This document shows, in pieces, positions 44,263-61,229 of a DNA stretch of 64,000 bases. Location: the NCBI GenBank assembly GCA_965279515.1, contig CBDIID010000003.1:768001-832000 (forward strand), read 5' to 3'. Numbering within the stretch: the stretch's first letter is position 1; each line of letters opens with the position of its first letter. Both the position numbers and the translations under genes were made by a program. Source of the stretch: Turneriella sp. GTDB taxonomy: Bacteria > Spirochaetota > Leptospiria > Turneriellales > Turneriellaceae. Under the pieces are notes generated by a model that was given only the letters and a program-made list of their open reading frames with translations, made no database searches and had not been told where the DNA came from.

Positions 44263-45228
44263 TCACCTACCCGTATCTGAAGCCTGCCACACCCACGTCA
44301 GTTCATGGCCGTTGTGCCAGAGATGGTAGATCTCAGAACCTGCAATCTGCGCAAAATCGCCCACCACTCTCTTATCTGACATGCCATGGACTTTTAAGGT
44401 GCAGATCATTGCCCTGAGCTTCGGCAGCTGTGTCCATTCACGCACCGAGTTCAAAAGTTTCGCAGGTTCGCAGGCCATATCACTTAAAATAACCGACGCA
44501 GTTTCCAGTAGCGCTGGCGCAGGATGTAAACCGTCGCCGGCGATAAACTTCAGGCGCGGAAACTTTTTCATGAGTTTTTCATCCGGCGCGCTGCGGTCGA
44601 TCATGGTGACCTGGGCACCGAGCGACGCGGCGACATAGCTCCACCCACCCGGCGTGGCGCCGAGGTCGAGCACATGCTCAGCTTTCGCCGGGTAAATGCC
44701 GGTGAGTGTAAGCGTCTCCCAGAGCTTGAGATAAGCCCGGCTCGGCGGCCCGGTTTTGTCTTCGACAAAAGCAATTTTGCCTCCGGCAAAACTCCCCTTC
44801 AGCGGCTGCAGAGTGTAGATGAGGCTCTTGTCGTTTTCAAGCGTAAAGGCTCCGCCCGTGGGATGTACCGCGGCGGGGGAAAACTCCAGGTTCTTTTTGC
44901 TTTTTACCCTGAGGGCTTCGGCAATGAGTTGCCCGCGCCTGAAATGTGCGCCGCCTGCATAGGCCCAGTGGCGGCCGAGGCTGCGCAGTTTTTTCGCCGC
45001 ATCGTTGATTGAATTAAAACTCAGCCGTTCGGCAGCGGGCCAATAGTCGAGAACCCAATACAGCCGCAGGTCACGTTCTGCCCAAAAGATGTTGGGATAG
45101 ATTTCCGCGGGGCGCGCTCCGCTTTGCCTGATCTCGTCGGTAAACTCTTCCCGCAGCTCATCGCGGATAAAATAGACGGCACCCAAATTATCCTTCAAAA
45201 AAGCCGCGGACCTTGCGCAGCTTTTCAA
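44263..45228 (-). CDS. RlmM/FtsJ-like SAM-dependent 2'-O-methyltransferase
   Basis: PPSRAYLKLWE, LDLGATPGGWS, LSDM, CTLK, HLWHN..ELT. Confidence 0.8.
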   Translation of the reverse strand: MKSCARSAAFLKDNLGAVYFIRDELREEFTDEIRQSGARPAEIYPNIFWAERDLRLYWVLDYWPAAERLSFNSINDAAKKLRSLGRHWAYAGGAHFRRGQLIAEALRVKSKKNLEFSPAAVHPTGGAFTLENDKSLIYTLQPLKGSFAGGKIAFVEDKTGPPSRAYLKLWETLTLTGIYPAKAEHVLDLGATPGGWSYVAASLGAQVTMIDRSAPDEKLMKKFPRLKFIAGDGLHPAPALLETASVILSDMACEPAKLLNSVREWTQLPKLRAMICTLKVHGMSDKRVVGDFAQIAGSEIYHLWHNGHELTWVWQASDTGR

Positions 45229-46258
45229 TCCAGCCCTTTTTATTGCCGCCCGGATTGAAGATGACCGGCTTCAGGTCGAAACCGCGCAGGGTGTCGTGGA
45301 CAAATTTGAGGATATAATGGAACACCTTTTCGCGCGCCAATTGGTGCGTCACCAGCACATGGTGCGTGCTCAGATTTTCATCCAGGCTAAACACAAAGGC
45401 GCGTTTTTCACTCGACGAAATCTTGCGGAAGATATAATGCATGTTCTCGATATGCACGGTCTGGTCGCCGGTCGCATGGATAAGACAGGTCGGTTGTTTG
45501 ATGCGGTAGAGCCGGCTCTTTACTTTTTGAATCCCCAGCTTAAACGAATGCAGCGCCGGCAGCGTATAGGCCTCGCCATAACCGACCCAGGGAATCATCA
45601 CCTTCTCTGAGACGCCGCCCTGCGCCTTGGGTATATGTGTAATAAAGTTCTTGAGAATGCCCGACAAGAACAGCCGCGGGTCGCGCACCAGCAGGCGGCC
45701 ATTGAGAAAACCATTGAGCATTACAGGGGCAGAAATACAGATCATGCCGGTGGGGGGCGAATGTTTCTGCACCTGCGTTGCGAGATTCAGGCAAAGATTT
45801 CCGCCCATCGAAAAACCAATCAGGAAAAAATGCCGGAAGCGCGGCCGTTCGCGCAGGTAGATCTCAAGCACGGCAGCGAGCCAGTGTTCGTAACGCGTCT
45901 TCGCGAAATCCTTGATATTGGTACCGTGACCGGGTAAGAGCGGCGCCACAACGGTATGCCCTTCGCGGTGCAACAGGTCGCCGATGTTGCGCATCGTATA
46001 CGGCGAATCTTCAAAGCCATGCACCAGCAGAAAACCGACGTCGGTCGTGCCCTGCAGCCTGAAAGGCTCGGCGCCCCGCATGATCTTGATTGCTGGCGGG
46101 GGTTCCTGAAAATCGCGCGGATTGACTTTTTCGGGCAGACCGTAATGGCCGACGATGAAGACAATGGCGATCAGTACCAGAAGCCAAAACACGAGGGAGA
46201 GAATCTTTTTCCCGCAGACGCGTAAAGAACCTTGCCACGTCCCTGTATCATGGTTCAA
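45188..46258 (-). CDS. membrane-anchored alpha/beta carboxylesterase/lipase
   Basis: TM helix, LVHGF..SP, LPGHGT, GFSMGG. Start is uncertain (TTG 46258, TTG 46315 or GTG 46372, all inside the 57-nt repeat). Confidence 0.8.
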   Translation of the reverse strand: MNHDTGTWQGSLRVCGKKILSLVFWLLVLIAIVFIVGHYGLPEKVNPRDFQEPPPAIKIMRGAEPFRLQGTTDVGFLLVHGFEDSPYTMRNIGDLLHREGHTVVAPLLPGHGTNIKDFAKTRYEHWLAAVLEIYLRERPRFRHFFLIGFSMGGNLCLNLATQVQKHSPPTGMICISAPVMLNGFLNGRLLVRDPRLFLSGILKNFITHIPKAQGGVSEKVMIPWVGYGEAYTLPALHSFKLGIQKVKSRLYRIKQPTCLIHATGDQTVHIENMHYIFRKISSSEKRAFVFSLDENLSTHHVLVTHQLAREKVFHYILKFVHDTLRGFDLKPVIFNPGGNKKGWIEKLRKVRGFFEG

Positions 46259-46424
46259 GCACAGACGACATCCTTGTCGGCTTGAACCTCCGTACATCCG
46301 TGTACCATGGTTCAAGCACAGACGACATCCTTGTCGGCTTGAACCTCCGTACATCCGTGTGCCATGGTTCACGCATAGATGACATCCTTGTCAGCGTGAA
46401 CCACGGCACATCCTTGTGCCATGG
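46236..46424 (-). repeat. 57-nt tandem repeat (3+ units) of GGA-loop hairpins, CsrA/RsmA-site-like
   Basis: CATGG recurs at 46249, 46306, 46363 and 46420. Minus strand has six ACA(A/C)GGATGT hairpins plus one ACAGGGACGT. Confidence 0.85.
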
Positions 46425-46894
46425 ATCAAAGAAAGCGTATTGCCCTTGTCGCGCATGATAACTGCAAACCGGATCTCATCGAGTGGGCCGAATATAACTG
46501 GAGCACACTCGCGAACCACGAACTCACCACCACCGGCACAACCGGCGCGCTGATTGAAAAGGCGATCCGCACGAAAAATGGGGCGACCGCCATGGACCAG
46601 ATCAAAATCCGCAAACTCAAATCGGGGCCGCTGGGTGGCGACCAGCAACTCGGGGCCCTCATCGCCGAAGAGAAAATCGACGCCATCTTCTTTTTTTGGG
46701 ACCCGATGCATGCTCAGCCGCATGACGTCGACGTCAAGGCACTGCTCAGAATCTGTGTGCTCTACAATGTTGTCAGCGCCTGCAACCGCGCCACAGCCGA
46801 TTTTGTCATTTCATCACCATTGTTTTCGGCGCAGTATAACCGTAAGGCCCCGGATTTCAGCGAATATACCGGTCGCTACAATAAGGAGAATTAA
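46421..46894 (+). CDS. mgsA: methylglyoxal synthase
   Basis: IALVAHD, TGTTG, SGPLGGDQQ, FFWDP, PHDVDVKALLR, ACNRATAD. Confidence 0.96.
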   Translation: MDQRKRIALVAHDNCKPDLIEWAEYNWSTLANHELTTTGTTGALIEKAIRTKNGATAMDQIKIRKLKSGPLGGDQQLGALIAEEKIDAIFFFWDPMHAQPHDVDVKALLRICVLYNVVSACNRATADFVISSPLFSAQYNRKAPDFSEYTGRYNKEN

Positions 46895-47336
46895 ACCACG
46901 GCCAGCGTGACCGTTGCGCGCGCGACGAGTTTTTTGCGCGTGCCTTGAAACGTGTAAACGAAAGAATCAGCGATAATCAGGGTCTTGCCGTTTTTTAAAA
47001 CAAAGGCTTCACAGTGTACCTTTTCGCCCTTCGCCGGGCGTAAAAGGTTTATCTTAAATTCTGCCGTTAGCACAATTTTGTCGGCAAAAATCAGCGTCGC
47101 TGCAGCGCCCCCCCCGTGTGATCGGCGATCGTCGCGAGAACTCCCGCGTGAATAAAACCGTTTTGCTGCTGATGTTTTCTCTGAATGATACATTCGGTGA
47201 CAGCACTGCCTGCGGCGACAGAAACCGGCAAAAGTCCCAGATCATTGATAAACGGCGCTGCGTGAAAAATACCGGCCACCCGCGCGGCGAAATCCGGGTC
47301 GAATGGTTTATAGGTTTCGTATTCGTAAGCGGGCAC
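46891..47336 (-). pseudogene. PaaI-family thioesterase split by a frameshift in a G8 tract
   Basis: 5' part APFINDLG..QQNGFIHAGVLATIADHT and 3' part AAAATL..VLTAEFKINLLRPA lie in different frames joined at C8 (47108-47115, + strand). Confidence 0.8.
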
Positions 47337-47346
47337 GGAGCCGTGC

Positions 47347-48780
47347 CTATTTTGCCAGTTCTTCGGCAAGCAGCTTGTTCGCCACCTGCGGATTCACCTT
47401 ACCGCGTGTCTTCTTCATGATCTCGCCCTGCAAATGTTTGAGCGCGCGGTCCTTGCCGGCTTTAAAATCCGCAACGGATGAAGGATGCTCACCGAGCACC
47501 GCGAGTACGATTTCGAGAATCGCCTTCTCATCGCTGATCTGTGACATGCCTTTCTCGTCGACGATTGCCTTGGCCTTTTTGCCGCTCTGTACCATCTCGG
47601 CAAAGACCTCTTTGGCAATTTTACCCGAGATCACGCCTGAATCAATCAGGTGGATTAACTCCGCGAGGTTTGTCGGCGGAAAAAGCGCACTGAGCGCTTT
47701 GTTTTTTTCTTTCACGATCGCCAGCATCTCTACCATCACCCAGTTCGATGCCTTTTTCGCGGGAGCGCCAGCCTTGAGGACTTCTTCAAAATAGAGCGCC
47801 GTATCGCGCTCCGATGTCAGAACGCCCGCGTCGTACTCGGGCAGGCCAAACTCCGTCACATAGCGCGAGCGCTTTTGGTGCGCGAGTTCGGGCAGATCTT
47901 TACGAATGCGCTCGATATCTTCTCTCTTTAAGATAAGCGGAACCAGGTCGGGATCGGGAAAATAACGGTAGTCGTGCGCTTCTTCTTTGCTGCGCATCGA
48001 TGCCGTTGCGTCGCGCGCCGCGTTGTAAAGCCGGGTCTCCTGGGTGACTTTGCCGCCCGACTCAATGAGTTCCGACTGGCGGACAATTTCATACTCGATG
48101 GCGGCTTTGACCGACTTAAAGGAGTTCAGGTTTTTAATTTCGACGCGCGTACCCAGCTTGTCGGTACCTTCAGGGCGCACACTCACGTTCGCATCGACGC
48201 GTAAGCTGCCCTGCTCCATATTACAATCGGAGACATCGATATATTCGAGAATTTTTTTGAGTTCCGTGAGGTAGGCTACTGCCTCGTCGGAGTTGTCGAT
48301 GTCGGGCTCTGAAACGATTTCGATCAGCGGTGTGCCCGCGCGGTTGAGGTCGACATAACTTTCATGCACCGAGGGATCTTCAGAGTGCATGAGTTTTCCC
48401 GCATCTTCTTCCATATGGATGCGCGTGATGCGGATCGTCTTCTTGCCGCTTTCGATTTCAATATCTATTTTGCCTTTGGTGCAATACGGTTCGAAAAACT
48501 GCGAGATCTGGTAGCCCTTCGGCAGGTCAGGATAAAAATAATTTTTGCGGTCGAACTTACTGCGCTCGTGTATCGCGCCCTCAAGCGCGAGGCCCGCGCG
48601 TACGGCCTTGACGACTGCTGCGGCATTCAAAACCGGCAGGGCGCCGGGAAGCCCCAGGCATACCGTCTGCACTTCGGTATTGGCGTCGGCACCAAAGGAC
48701 GTCGCTGCGGTAGAGAATAACTTGCTCTGGGTATTGAGCTGGCAGTGGACTTCGAGACCGATGGTGGGGACGAACTTCAT
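47347..48780 (-). CDS. gatB: Asp-tRNA(Asn)/Glu-tRNA(Gln) amidotransferase subunit B
   Basis: IGLEVHCQL, FDRKNYFYPDLPKGYQISQ, RIHMEEDAGK, DYRYFPDPDL. Confidence 0.97.
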   Translation of the reverse strand: MKFVPTIGLEVHCQLNTQSKLFSTAATSFGADANTEVQTVCLGLPGALPVLNAAAVVKAVRAGLALEGAIHERSKFDRKNYFYPDLPKGYQISQFFEPYCTKGKIDIEIESGKKTIRITRIHMEEDAGKLMHSEDPSVHESYVDLNRAGTPLIEIVSEPDIDNSDEAVAYLTELKKILEYIDVSDCNMEQGSLRVDANVSVRPEGTDKLGTRVEIKNLNSFKSVKAAIEYEIVRQSELIESGGKVTQETRLYNAARDATASMRSKEEAHDYRYFPDPDLVPLILKREDIERIRKDLPELAHQKRSRYVTEFGLPEYDAGVLTSERDTALYFEEVLKAGAPAKKASNWVMVEMLAIVKEKNKALSALFPPTNLAELIHLIDSGVISGKIAKEVFAEMVQSGKKAKAIVDEKGMSQISDEKAILEIVLAVLGEHPSSVADFKAGKDRALKHLQGEIMKKTRGKVNPQVANKLLAEELAK

Positions 48781-58110: not shown

Positions 58111-59045
58111 AGATCGATGCACAGACACAGGTGTTTGGCATCATTGGCAATCCCCTGAGCCATACTTTTTCGCCCGCAATGCACAATGCGGGTTTTGCCG
58201 CGCGAAAGACCAATGCCGTTTACCTCGCCTTTCCGATCAAAAACCTGATACAGCTGAAATATTCCATGAAGCAGTGGAATATACGCGGCCTCTCGGTTAC
58301 CATACCGTACAAGATAGCGATCCGCCGCCTGCTCGACCGCATTGACCCGCTGGCGCTGCAGATCGGTTCAGTGAATACCATTCTGTGGGGTAAAACCGGG
58401 CTGCTCGAGGGTTATAATACCGACGGCCCCGGCGCGATCATGGCACTCACCAAATCGAAAGTGACGCTTGCCGGCAAAAAAATTCTCGTCATCGGTTCGG
58501 GGGGCTCCGCGCGCAGCATTGCCTTTGCCCTCGCACGGGAAAAACCCTCTGAAATCGGCATTTTGGCCCGTAATCCGATGATGGCGATGCAACTCGCACG
58601 TAATCTGACGCTGAACAAAGATAACCCCAAAGTGACGCTTTACCTGACGGGCGTGCGGCAGACACTGCAGAATTCACTGGTGGAATTTATGCCGCAGAGC
58701 GGCCGCAAATGGACGAGTTTACGCTATAACGACCCCGATATGATCGCCGATTTTGACCTCATTATCAACACCACACCCATGGGAATGAAGGGTTCGCCCT
58801 CGGCGGCCCAAAGCCCTTTAAAAGCTGCCGAAATCAAAAAGCACCAGACGGTCTTTGACATAGTCTATAACCCGGCGCATACTCCTCTGCTTAAGATAGC
58901 AAAACAAAAACGCTGCCCCATTGTTTTGGGGCATAAAATGCTGCTCTACCAGGGCGTGCTGCAATTTGAGCTTTTCACCGGTCGTCCCGCGCCGGTTCTT
59001 GAAATGGAGAAAGCACTGATCGCAGAGATCAAAAAGGTTTCGTAA
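58107..59045 (+). CDS. aroE: shikimate dehydrogenase
   Basis: HTFSPAMHN, SVTIPYK, GSVNT, YNTD, GSGGSAR, INTTPMGM, DIVYNP, MLLYQG. Confidence 0.95.
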   Translation: MKIDAQTQVFGIIGNPLSHTFSPAMHNAGFAARKTNAVYLAFPIKNLIQLKYSMKQWNIRGLSVTIPYKIAIRRLLDRIDPLALQIGSVNTILWGKTGLLEGYNTDGPGAIMALTKSKVTLAGKKILVIGSGGSARSIAFALAREKPSEIGILARNPMMAMQLARNLTLNKDNPKVTLYLTGVRQTLQNSLVEFMPQSGRKWTSLRYNDPDMIADFDLIINTTPMGMKGSPSAAQSPLKAAEIKKHQTVFDIVYNPAHTPLLKIAKQKRCPIVLGHKMLLYQGVLQFELFTGRPAPVLEMEKALIAEIKKVS

Positions 59046-59659
59046 TGGCCGACCCAAGAAGATCCAGACCCCGCCGCGGGGGAGCTCCCCGGGGAGGAAG
59101 CCCCCGGGCGAAAATCCATCCGCCCAAAAAGCCGCGCATCGCGCTGATCGGTTTTCGTGGTGTGGGCAAATCGGCGATCGCGCGCCGCCTTGCCGAATAC
59201 TGGGAAATGCCGCTCCTGTCGCTCGATGAAAAAATTGAACGCGATGAAAACATGCGTATCGACGAAATCGTCAGGCAGCATGGCTGGCAGTATTTCCGCG
59301 ACCGCGAATGGTCGGCGCTCGCCGCGGCGGCAAATGCGGAACGCCTGCTGCTCGATTGCGGCGGTGGCATCGTTGAAGAAGCCGAAGGACTACGCAGCGA
59401 CCGCAAGATGCAGATACTCAAAGATAATTTTTTTTGTATCTATATCGCCATCAATGAAGATAAATTGATGCACCGGTTACAAAATCTTAACCGCAACGCT
59501 TCGCGCCCCGATCTTTCGCCCGGCGATTCACCGCAAAATCTTTTGCAGGTGTTTAAGCGCCGCGAACCGCTCTATCTTGAAATCGCGCATACTGTTGTTG
59601 ACATTTCAGACACCAATGTCAGCGAAAGTGCTTTTCGCATCACACAAATGTTTAAATGA
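59045..59659 (+). CDS. aroK: shikimate kinase
   Basis: IGFRGVGKS, GWQYFRDRE, CGGGIV, RPDL, REPLY. Confidence 0.92.
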   Translation: MADPRRSRPRRGGAPRGGSPRAKIHPPKKPRIALIGFRGVGKSAIARRLAEYWEMPLLSLDEKIERDENMRIDEIVRQHGWQYFRDREWSALAAAANAERLLLDCGGGIVEEAEGLRSDRKMQILKDNFFCIYIAINEDKLMHRLQNLNRNASRPDLSPGDSPQNLLQVFKRREPLYLEIAHTVVDISDTNVSESAFRITQMFK

Positions 59660-59666
59660 CCGTACT

Positions 59667-59730
59667 CATGGTCGACCAAAAAGACGGCATCCCTGTCGGT
59701 GAGCGACCCTTAGCCTCCATGCTCATGGTT
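59667..59730 (-). repeat. degenerate single copy of the 57-nt GGA-hairpin unit
   Basis: CATGG at 59667 and 59724 (57 apart). Minus-strand hairpins CGACAGGGATGCCG and AGCATGGAGGCT. Confidence 0.65.
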
Positions 59731-59765
59731 GACGCACTATGCGGCATCTGGAACGGGTCGAATGG

Positions 59766-61229
59766 ATGTCTCGGGTTCTCCTCGTCACAAAAAATCGCAC
59801 GTTAGGTGAATTCTGCCGAAAAAATCTGCCCGAAGGTTACCGGCTCAAGATCGTCACGCAGCTCAACCTGCGTACCGAATCTGCGCACAGCATCATCGTT
59901 TTTGATTCAGACTACCTGACAGGCGTTTCGGATTCCGTGATCCATGCCGCAGCGCAAAAGTTTGGCGCGAAAGAAGGTGCCGCCTCTCTCAATATCCTCA
60001 TGAACGAGGAAAACAAAGCGCGCACTTTTTCGCTGTTTCCCGAAAGCCTGCCGCAGATACAGGCGATCCTCCACTTCCGCAGCGAAGGCGGAAAAATCGC
60101 CGGCCTTGCCGCCTCAGAATGGCGCTGGTTTCTCGACACGCAGAGCCGTTTCCTGAAACAACTGAATGACCAGGCGCTGGCAGTGGGTGAAAATGAACTT
60201 CTCGCCGAACGGCTGGCACGCCTGAACCCTGCGGCACAAAATCAGCTGCAATTCCCTCCTTTCATGCAAGGCAAATCGCAGGCCATCATTCACTTCCGCG
60301 AACAGCTCTACGCCGCTGCATCGCGGCAACCCTACCTCTTTCTCACGGGCAAGGCCGATATACCGACACAGGAGTTTATCGAATACTACTGCTCGCTGCT
60401 GCGCCCTGAAGAACCAGTGCCCTTCCAGCATATTGATCTCGCCAAACTGCCCAAACACCTGCATGCACAGGCTATGCTGACCGCCAAGAAGAAGACAAAG
60501 AGCAATGGCCGGGCAGGCACGAACGTGTTATGCGTCGAAAACCTGCATCTGCTGGGATGGCAAAACCAGGCAACGCTTCTCACCTTACTCAAAAATCCCG
60601 CCGAGACGCGGTTACGTTTTGTTTTTTTAGCGCCGCATGAAATCGGACAACTGGTACGCCGCGGCTCTTTCCGCCAGGAACTCTATTCACTACTGCGCAA
60701 AGCCGCGGTAGAACTGCCGCCGCTCTATGACCGCACCGAAGATTTAAGCCAGATCGCCGCCGAATATATCCAGAAACGCGACTTCTCGTCCCTGAACAGC
60801 GATGTCAGCGCCGTCGCCGGAAAAATCCTCAGCCGTTTCGATCTTTCGAGCGGCTACCGCGGCCTTTTTATGACGATCGATCTGATGAATGACCTCGGCA
60901 AAAGCAAAGGGTTGCCGGTCTTCGAACTGATGAACACCGGGGAAGTATCCGAGGCTTTCGCCGCGGCACGCAGTTTCCTGCGAGAAGAAATCGAACCCGA
61001 CCCGGCAACGCTCTTCGAAAGTCTCGCCGCCGGGGCCAAAGAGACGCTGAGCCTGGACTTTGTTGAAAGCAATTATATCGCCGCGGTTTGCCAGCGCTAC
61101 GCATGGCAGGTGACCGATGCGGCGCGGCACCTCGGTATCTCGCGTAAGACTCTCTACGATAAAATGCGCCGCTATAAGATCGCCCGTCCGGAAAATCAGG
61201 CAAGGGGCAAGGCACGTAAGGCTTCGTGA
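59766..61229 (+). CDS. Fis-HTH regulator with degenerate sigma54-activator AAA+ domain
   Basis: GKSQAI..LFLTG, FRQELY, LPPLYDRTEDL, C-terminal AARHLGISRKTLYDKM. Walker A and GAFTGA absent. Confidence 0.75.
   Translation: MSRVLLVTKNRTLGEFCRKNLPEGYRLKIVTQLNLRTESAHSIIVFDSDYLTGVSDSVIHAAAQKFGAKEGAASLNILMNEENKARTFSLFPESLPQIQAILHFRSEGGKIAGLAASEWRWFLDTQSRFLKQLNDQALAVGENELLAERLARLNPAAQNQLQFPPFMQGKSQAIIHFREQLYAAASRQPYLFLTGKADIPTQEFIEYYCSLLRPEEPVPFQHIDLAKLPKHLHAQAMLTAKKKTKSNGRAGTNVLCVENLHLLGWQNQATLLTLLKNPAETRLRFVFLAPHEIGQLVRRGSFRQELYSLLRKAAVELPPLYDRTEDLSQIAAEYIQKRDFSSLNSDVSAVAGKILSRFDLSSGYRGLFMTIDLMNDLGKSKGLPVFELMNTGEVSEAFAAARSFLREEIEPDPATLFESLAAGAKETLSLDFVESNYIAAVCQRYAWQVTDAARHLGISRKTLYDKMRRYKIARPENQARGKARKAS

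Follow-up and report, generated by a model that had tools for sequence, protein, structure and literature searches.

The 57-nt tandem array between an esterase gene and mgsA in this Turneriella genome is a stack of a dispersed, mobile twin-hairpin repeat, rather than a dedicated regulatory sRNA. It probably arose by head-to-tail amplification of a structure-constrained mobile repeat with a TwoAYGGAY core, which would act as a diffuse sink for CsrA or as an incidental leader element. The mgsA/esterase locus alone is ordinary, being one among dozens; its value lies in the family to which it belongs and in the clean insertion sites of that family.

Tandem Repeats Finder reported one tandem array in the window (the whole 64-kb stretch of DNA that was analysed), at 46240-46429, with a period of 57, 3.3 copies and 89% matches. 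This bears out the sequence-only reading of the locus, which had described three full 57-nt units and a partial one between divergent esterase and mgsA genes. Read along the minus strand, the units begin at 46424, 46367, 46310 and 46253, the last being a partial unit of 18 nt. Units 2 and 3 are identical at 56 of 57 positions, and unit 1 matches either of them at 47–48 of 57. The three full units match the family model, and the annotated features of the window are as follows.

46368..46424, minus strand: unit 1 of the twin-hairpin element, with its two loops at 46413 and 46387 and a 5′ CCAT that shares bases with the start codon of mgsA on the opposite strand
46311..46367, minus strand: unit 2 of the twin-hairpin element, with loops at 46356 and 46330
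46254..46310, minus strand: unit 3 of the twin-hairpin element, with loops at 46299 and 46273; the sole full unit kept in the run X7 contig
46236..46253, minus strand: partial unit 4, consisting of the first hairpin only, with a weak stem and a loop at 46242
46421..46894, plus strand: mgsA-like gene with an MGS domain; its start codon (ATG, 46421-46423) is the insertion point of the array and is overlapped by unit 1
45188..46192, minus strand: alpha/beta hydrolase (esterase-like) gene; the likely start is the GTG at 46192, aligned with the ATG of relatives
59664..59730, minus strand: a second, single copy of the element, antisense to a shikimate kinase gene (59045-59659, plus) and a sigma-54/Fis-type gene (59739-61229, plus)

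All seven minus-strand GGA motifs noted earlier are present as written, and the linkers hold two further GGA. Seven CANGGANG motifs fall within 190 nt, whereas 200 resamples of the window under a first-order Markov model gave four at most. The array is the largest such cluster in the genome, other tandem stacks holding six, five and four motifs. The placement of the GGA motifs in hairpin loops held up in part: folding of the minus strand gave a z of -6.1 (-8.6 for the plus strand, which leads into mgsA and is without GGA loops), but in the ensemble computed for the array alone only five of the seven motifs are predominantly unpaired. In the lower loops at 46330 and 46273 the GGA is mostly paired, with an unpaired probability of about 0.17 for the second G and the A, because the array units can pair with each other.

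A model built from 14 paralogues found at least 73 copies of the unit in the source genome at E<0.001, rising to 95 when E<=1 is allowed; both are lower bounds because 150 of some 2,250 candidates were scored. All 14 Turneriella genomes hold 20–73 copies each, whereas elsewhere in the order copies occur in two of 20 genomes (2–4 each) and are absent from the remaining 18. With a simple motif pattern, expansions were seen in a few distant spirochetes, and 1–3 matches only in ten genomes of the genus g19. The share of CANGGANG motifs that lie in hairpins is about fourfold that of control motifs (8.6% versus 1.9–3.0%), and the spacing of paired motifs peaks sharply at 26 nt (28 pairs versus 0–1 for control motifs). 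Folding of 35 motif pairs revealed a common architecture in which 2 nt separate a short hairpin from a long one that is bulged on its 3′ side. Units are 54–60 nt long, and their loops are of the type ANGGAN, or AGGAN/ACGAN; the GGA-less ACGAN loop is recurrent, and GGA in both loops could be parsed for only 53 of 91 copies. No description of this twin-hairpin family in Turneriella was found in the literature searched, which consisted mostly of open-access papers. Two further dispersed hairpin families are visible in a genome-wide census of loops.

The fold is maintained across very diverse sequences. Two-sided changes were observed at 14 of 18 base pairs among the 14 paralogues, and 92% of cells are paired, compared with 23–44% in slid controls; the paralogues were picked for equal length and the fold was derived from the same sequences, which favours the 92% figure. 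The stems also tolerate G-U pairs. The covariation that had been noticed between units of the array is thus real in its compensatory changes, but is a property of the whole repeat family and not of this locus. As the copies are diverse (mean column identity 49%) yet well paired, recent neutral transposition would not predict them, and a further process is needed, be it selection acting on every copy, correction of the palindromes or recombination between copies. Two clean cases of compensated change were found in copies shared between genomes, and any of these three processes could yield them.

Mobility is seen directly at the mgsA/esterase locus. Among seven genomes in which mgsA lies beside the esterase, a count that leaves out four genomes with split matches, the element is present in two, namely the source genome (3.3 units) and its closest relative, G001 (about two units), and the site is empty in five. 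The element is also absent from three more same-genus esterase loci that have no intact mgsA. The element entered the mgsA start codon in the common ancestor of the source genome and G001, and the number of units changed later. Three other family copies likewise have their start right on the ATG of a gene in antisense. A contig of sequencing run X7, from a near-identical strain that differs at two positions in about 530 nt, lacks precisely 114 nt, or two units, leaving 1.3 units, although this difference in copy number rests on a single contig and may be an assembly effect. In the same contig, a change at 46272 removes the GGA from the second loop of unit 3. Contigs of runs X1 and X4 span the array in overlapping pieces.

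Comparison with G001 at further sites extends this picture. At least 30 G001 loci were listed, of which 28 were used after two tandem neighbours were dropped, and 24 could be aligned on both flanks. Nineteen of these 24 sites are empty in the source genome, four are shared and one is unclear. The scattered presence of the copies makes gain seem a simpler reading than loss. Filled and empty sites differ in length by a multiple of three in 17 of 19 cases, mostly by 54, 57 or 60 nt, and the junctions, read by eye, show an overlap of about 2–6 nt at CC. At shared sites, L231 carries one compensated pair of stem changes and L246 two, with none broken, and L241, L245, L247 and L237 have 5–7 'broken' pairs, some of them from whole-stem replacement or truncation; these tallies are usable for two or three of the seven sites, because the predicted fold elsewhere is not the family fold.

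The possibility that stems are templated by the target was rejected as a general rule: the flanks of 76 single copies match on average at 7.5 of 15 positions, against a null of 6.6, and the overlap at empty sites is limited to the 2–6 nt above. A flank match of at least 10 of 15 was found in 12 of the 76 copies, where about 2% were expected. At one site, in the gene of L191, a 16-nt flanking repeat includes a stem arm.

The positions of the copies were surveyed for 91 of the 95 matches, omitting four that are partial or doubtful, with genes taken from the analysis's own gene finder. Forty-five copies lie inside called genes, with the GGA strand sense in 31 and antisense in 14 (p=0.016 for the sense excess). 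This bias suggests a role at the RNA level and is unexpected for a purely DNA-level element. Outside genes, 14 sense and 15 antisense copies lie between co-oriented neighbours, 11 between divergent genes and six between convergent ones.

Four genes with internal copies were compared with their orthologues, and each carries a 19-codon in-frame insertion that the orthologues do not have; two of the four insertions are antisense. For ThiC, seven of 11 orthologues are empty at this position, one has a different element at the same place, one has a degenerate-looking longer insert and two have 4–5 extra residues. Insertion of this kind is one way for 19-residue peptides to become part of conserved enzymes such as ThiC. 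Element-derived peptides were observed in ThiC, MurA and RecG (G000:C3:391097, 3546102 and 2971782, respectively), the orthologue comparison among these three covering ThiC only.

Units enter new sites in either orientation, with the short overlap at CC, and their targets lie between genes, on start or stop codons, or in frame within genes. Spread may proceed through a single-stranded DNA or RNA intermediate that is recognised by its fold and loops, not by its stem sequence, and insertions inside genes would survive where their length is divisible by three. In the case of mgsA, one unit entered the start codon, with copy-number change later giving about 1.3, 2 and 3.3 units; tandem copies could come from slippage or from insertion of multimers. 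The GGA strand is probably transcribed here by read-through from gatB towards the esterase, and each transcribed unit would bind one CsrA dimer with its two loops. At one dimer per transcribed unit, the family would form a diffuse, low-level sink, and the array an incidental leader element.

The closest known counterpart is the TwoAYGGAY motif. The Rfam TwoAYGGAY model (RF01731) gave six matches, the array not among them; four family copies aligned at model positions of about 45–113, and the best score was 24.4 bits against a cut-off of 43. Both TwoAYGGAY and the Turneriella unit consist of two hairpins in succession, with A(N)GGA(N) loops, a short linker and a bulged second stem, and the published consensus, in the portion available, has the same two hairpins (PMC2864571). 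The accessible text of PMC4333381 describes a poorly conserved basal stem and tandem G-A pairs in one stem, and proposes binding by CsrA/Rsm; no consistent enclosing stem was found in the 35 folded Turneriella motif pairs. Both are also dispersed, multi-copy families with strong variation in copy number. From such variation, a mobile-like expansion of TwoAYGGAY has been proposed in a preprint whose available sections state the link to Csr/Rsm as unresolved (bioRxiv 10.64898/2026.09.22.753630). Of the TwoAYGGAY matches in Pseudomonas, about a tenth fall within coding sequences, according to the sources cited here. In contrast with TwoAYGGAY, the Turneriella repeat is a 54–60-nt core with no extension, forms head-to-tail arrays, has about half of its copies in genes and occurs in the phylum Spirochaetota, and its filled and empty sites are shown directly.

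Other palindromic repeats resemble the family in part. Rickettsia palindromic elements likewise insert in frame into unrelated genes, adding a peptide, with about half of the copies intragenic; they are, however, about 150 bp long with a conserved peptide, compared with 54–60 nt and diverse stems and peptides in Turneriella, and CsrA-type loops are not mentioned in the accessible part of that account (PMC10969869). REP/REPIN sequences mobilised with RAYT are also short dispersed palindromes that form tandem arrays and often lie at stop codons. Unlike them, 45 of the 91 Turneriella copies are intragenic, and the Y1 transposase of the genome is not flanked by the twin-hairpin repeat.

The loops of the family correspond to the CsrA consensus, as the sequence-only reading had claimed, and csrA and fliW, whose presence it had proposed to confirm, are both in the genome and adjacent. 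CsrA is likely to bind the GGA strand, and such binding would make the family a distributed sink or an incidental leader but not a dedicated sRNA. In Leptospira, a GGA hexaloop in the flaB leaders is a binding site of CsrA (PMC8668096), and the array shares such hexaloop hairpins with the CsrA-bound flagellin leaders of Leptospira (flaB, same source) and Bacillus (hag; PMC13443453, in the part accessible). In those leaders one site lies over the ribosome-binding site, whereas none does so in the array. In the source genome, a flagellin leader at G000:C3:3984916-3984957 (L061) contains two ANGGAN hairpins at 26-nt spacing, the second over the ribosome-binding site, and is probably a true CsrA target; two of the three other flagellin leaders carry at least one ANGGAN motif.

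Across GTDB, in several phyla, csrA was found in 21 of 28 genomes with a model-fitting motif pair and in 19 of 49 without such a fit (Fisher p=0.004); this association draws on 80 of at least 117 loci, and on genomes that are incomplete and related to one another. A strict need for CsrA is opposed by the even strand distribution between co-oriented genes (14 versus 15), by the limited number of copies parsed with GGA in both loops (53 of 91), by the recurrent GGA-less loop and by the loss of a GGA in X7. It had also been stated that spirochete CsrA is generally described as antagonised by FliW rather than by sRNAs. The accessible part of PMC8668096 agrees in presuming FliW to be the antagonist in Leptospira, but a CsrA-like ncRNA has been computationally predicted in Leptospira biflexa, as the available text of PMC4863578 reports, and the statement holds in part.

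The alternative that fares best is a purely DNA-level, REP-like palindrome, in which the GGA loop is a recognition tag for a nuclease or recombinase and its likeness to CsrA sites is coincidental. This reading shares the mobile repeat with the explanation preferred here and differs solely over CsrA; it is possible, if somewhat unlikely. Its appeal lies in the same lack of strand bias between co-oriented genes, in the recurrence of GGA-less ACGAN loops, in a compensatory change that occurs in an antisense copy too, and in single hairpins with the same loop that keep constant distances to attC-like sites and, in 68 of 68 cases, share one strand regardless of the strand of the cassette gene. It is opposed by the sense bias inside genes, by a motif spacing equal to that of the flagellin leader, by the association with csrA across phyla and by the tolerance of G-U pairs in stems.

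Alternatively, CsrA might itself be used by the element. In this more doubtful proposal, the repeat is a selfish, minimal RNA-structure element: a CsrA dimer would clamp both loops and thereby protect, scaffold or mobilise the unit, any stem sequence would be allowed provided that fold and loops persist, and dozens of mRNA-borne copies would amount to a genome-wide sponge in a FliW-type organism without CsrB, the same loops also marking cassette ends in two large attC-like arrays that lack a neighbouring integron integrase. If true, one mechanism would tie together the TwoAYGGAY motif, in-frame peptide insertion and cassette assembly.

The remaining alternatives turn on the setting of the array. 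The region 44263-48780 of the window contains gatB, a short gene, antisense mgsA, the esterase and an FtsJ-like methyltransferase gene. In other genera no gene separates gatB from the esterase downstream of it, so that minus-strand read-through across the array is plausible and mgsA, which is truncated in G008, looks like a genus-specific antisense insert in the operon. Esterase identity across same-genus genomes is 70–91%. The 3′ end of the array on the GGA strand lies 43 nt before the likely esterase GTG, and the esterase frame stays open upstream through the array, to 46372. No terminator-like site was found between the array and the esterase start. The sole nearby promoter-like site (46860-46833, 9/12) belongs to a class that occurs at chance level, with three found and 3.3 expected. 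An Rfam scan of the array locus returned nothing at cut-off, the best Csr/Rsm match covering 16 nt of RsmV and scoring 11.2 bits against a cut-off of 100.

Co-option of the insertion as a CsrA-gated leader, acting on esterase translation through the GGA strand or on mgsA translation through the antisense hairpins, is decidedly unlikely. The GGA strand is sense to the esterase and could be reached by read-through from gatB, the element has been kept in two species, and three further copies also start at an ATG in antisense. The nearest GGA, however, lies about 50 nt from the esterase start and covers no ribosome-binding site, unlike in the flagellin leader, the copy number is unstable, and the plus strand entering mgsA has no GGA loops. 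An evolved esterase leader, one reading of the earlier suggestion of a multi-site CsrA leader, is not supported for a dispersed insertion element whose unit number differs between near-identical strains.

CsrB, CsrC and RsmX/Y/Z resemble the array in having several GGA motifs in hairpin loops, and the pentaloop variant CAGGAUG is the CsrB repeat; they are single-locus genes with their own promoter and terminator, whereas the Turneriella repeat is a dispersed insertion for which neither was found. A dedicated CsrB/RsmZ-like minus-strand sRNA that sequesters CsrA alongside FliW, first proposed as a locus-specific sponge, is highly improbable: the seven consensus-like motifs in the genome's largest cluster, the presence of csrA and the ncRNA predicted in L. 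biflexa (PMC4863578, as above) speak for it, but the repeat is scattered over the genome in at least 73 copies of both orientations, many of them intragenic, the site is empty in five of seven syntenic genomes and a near-identical strain retains 1.3 units there, short of one GGA, no terminator-like site precedes the esterase, the nearby promoter-like site is at chance level, and Rfam gave no Csr/Rsm match beyond the sub-cut-off RsmV piece. Screens that count GGA in search of CsrB-like RNAs in spirochetes will also catch repeat arrays.

Candidate mobilising enzymes were sought in the source genome and its relatives, and no mobiliser of the repeat was found. A Y1 (IS200/RAYT-like) transposase is encoded at L062:2096-2556; this sole Y1 of the genome is flanked by a different palindrome family, and was rejected as the mobiliser. 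Reverse transcriptase was likewise set aside as not common to the genus, being found in only six of 14 Turneriella genomes. The only reverse-transcriptase match in the source genome (G000:C3:1300966-1301818, L257) has, some 360 bp away, a single long-stem GGA hairpin like those of the cassette arrays. One integron integrase query against the 14 genus genomes gave no match at E<1e-40, and the control gave no match either. In a distant spirochete, G041, near-identical, longer multi-hairpin GGA elements occupy many intergenic regions (L180-L183, L189). They form a recent expansion, in which the mobiliser may be easier to find; no common neighbouring gene was found at ten loci with identical multi-copy elements in other spirochetes.

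For the mobile repeat favoured here, filled and empty sites with base-level junctions, a minimal unit of 57 nt and insertion in both orientations make mobility and CsrA binding separately testable.

Small gene cassettes, oriented either way, also form two large arrays in the source genome (G000:C3:93000-171000 and 3734000-3805000; L004, L005 and L006). The cassettes are separated by attC-like imperfect palindromes of about 200 bp, and 71 of the 72 cores share a strand. Long-stem ANGGAN hairpins that occur singly, the 68 of uniform strand mentioned above, lie 40–48 nt before or 237–240 nt after many of these cores. None of the genome's four tyrosine recombinases lies near the cassette arrays, and an Rfam scan of the cassette region gave nothing at cut-off. 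Contig C2 of the source genome (19.8 kb) has this hairpin at intervals of 6,626 bp, a periodicity which suggests that this contig may be a small plasmid assembled as a trimer.
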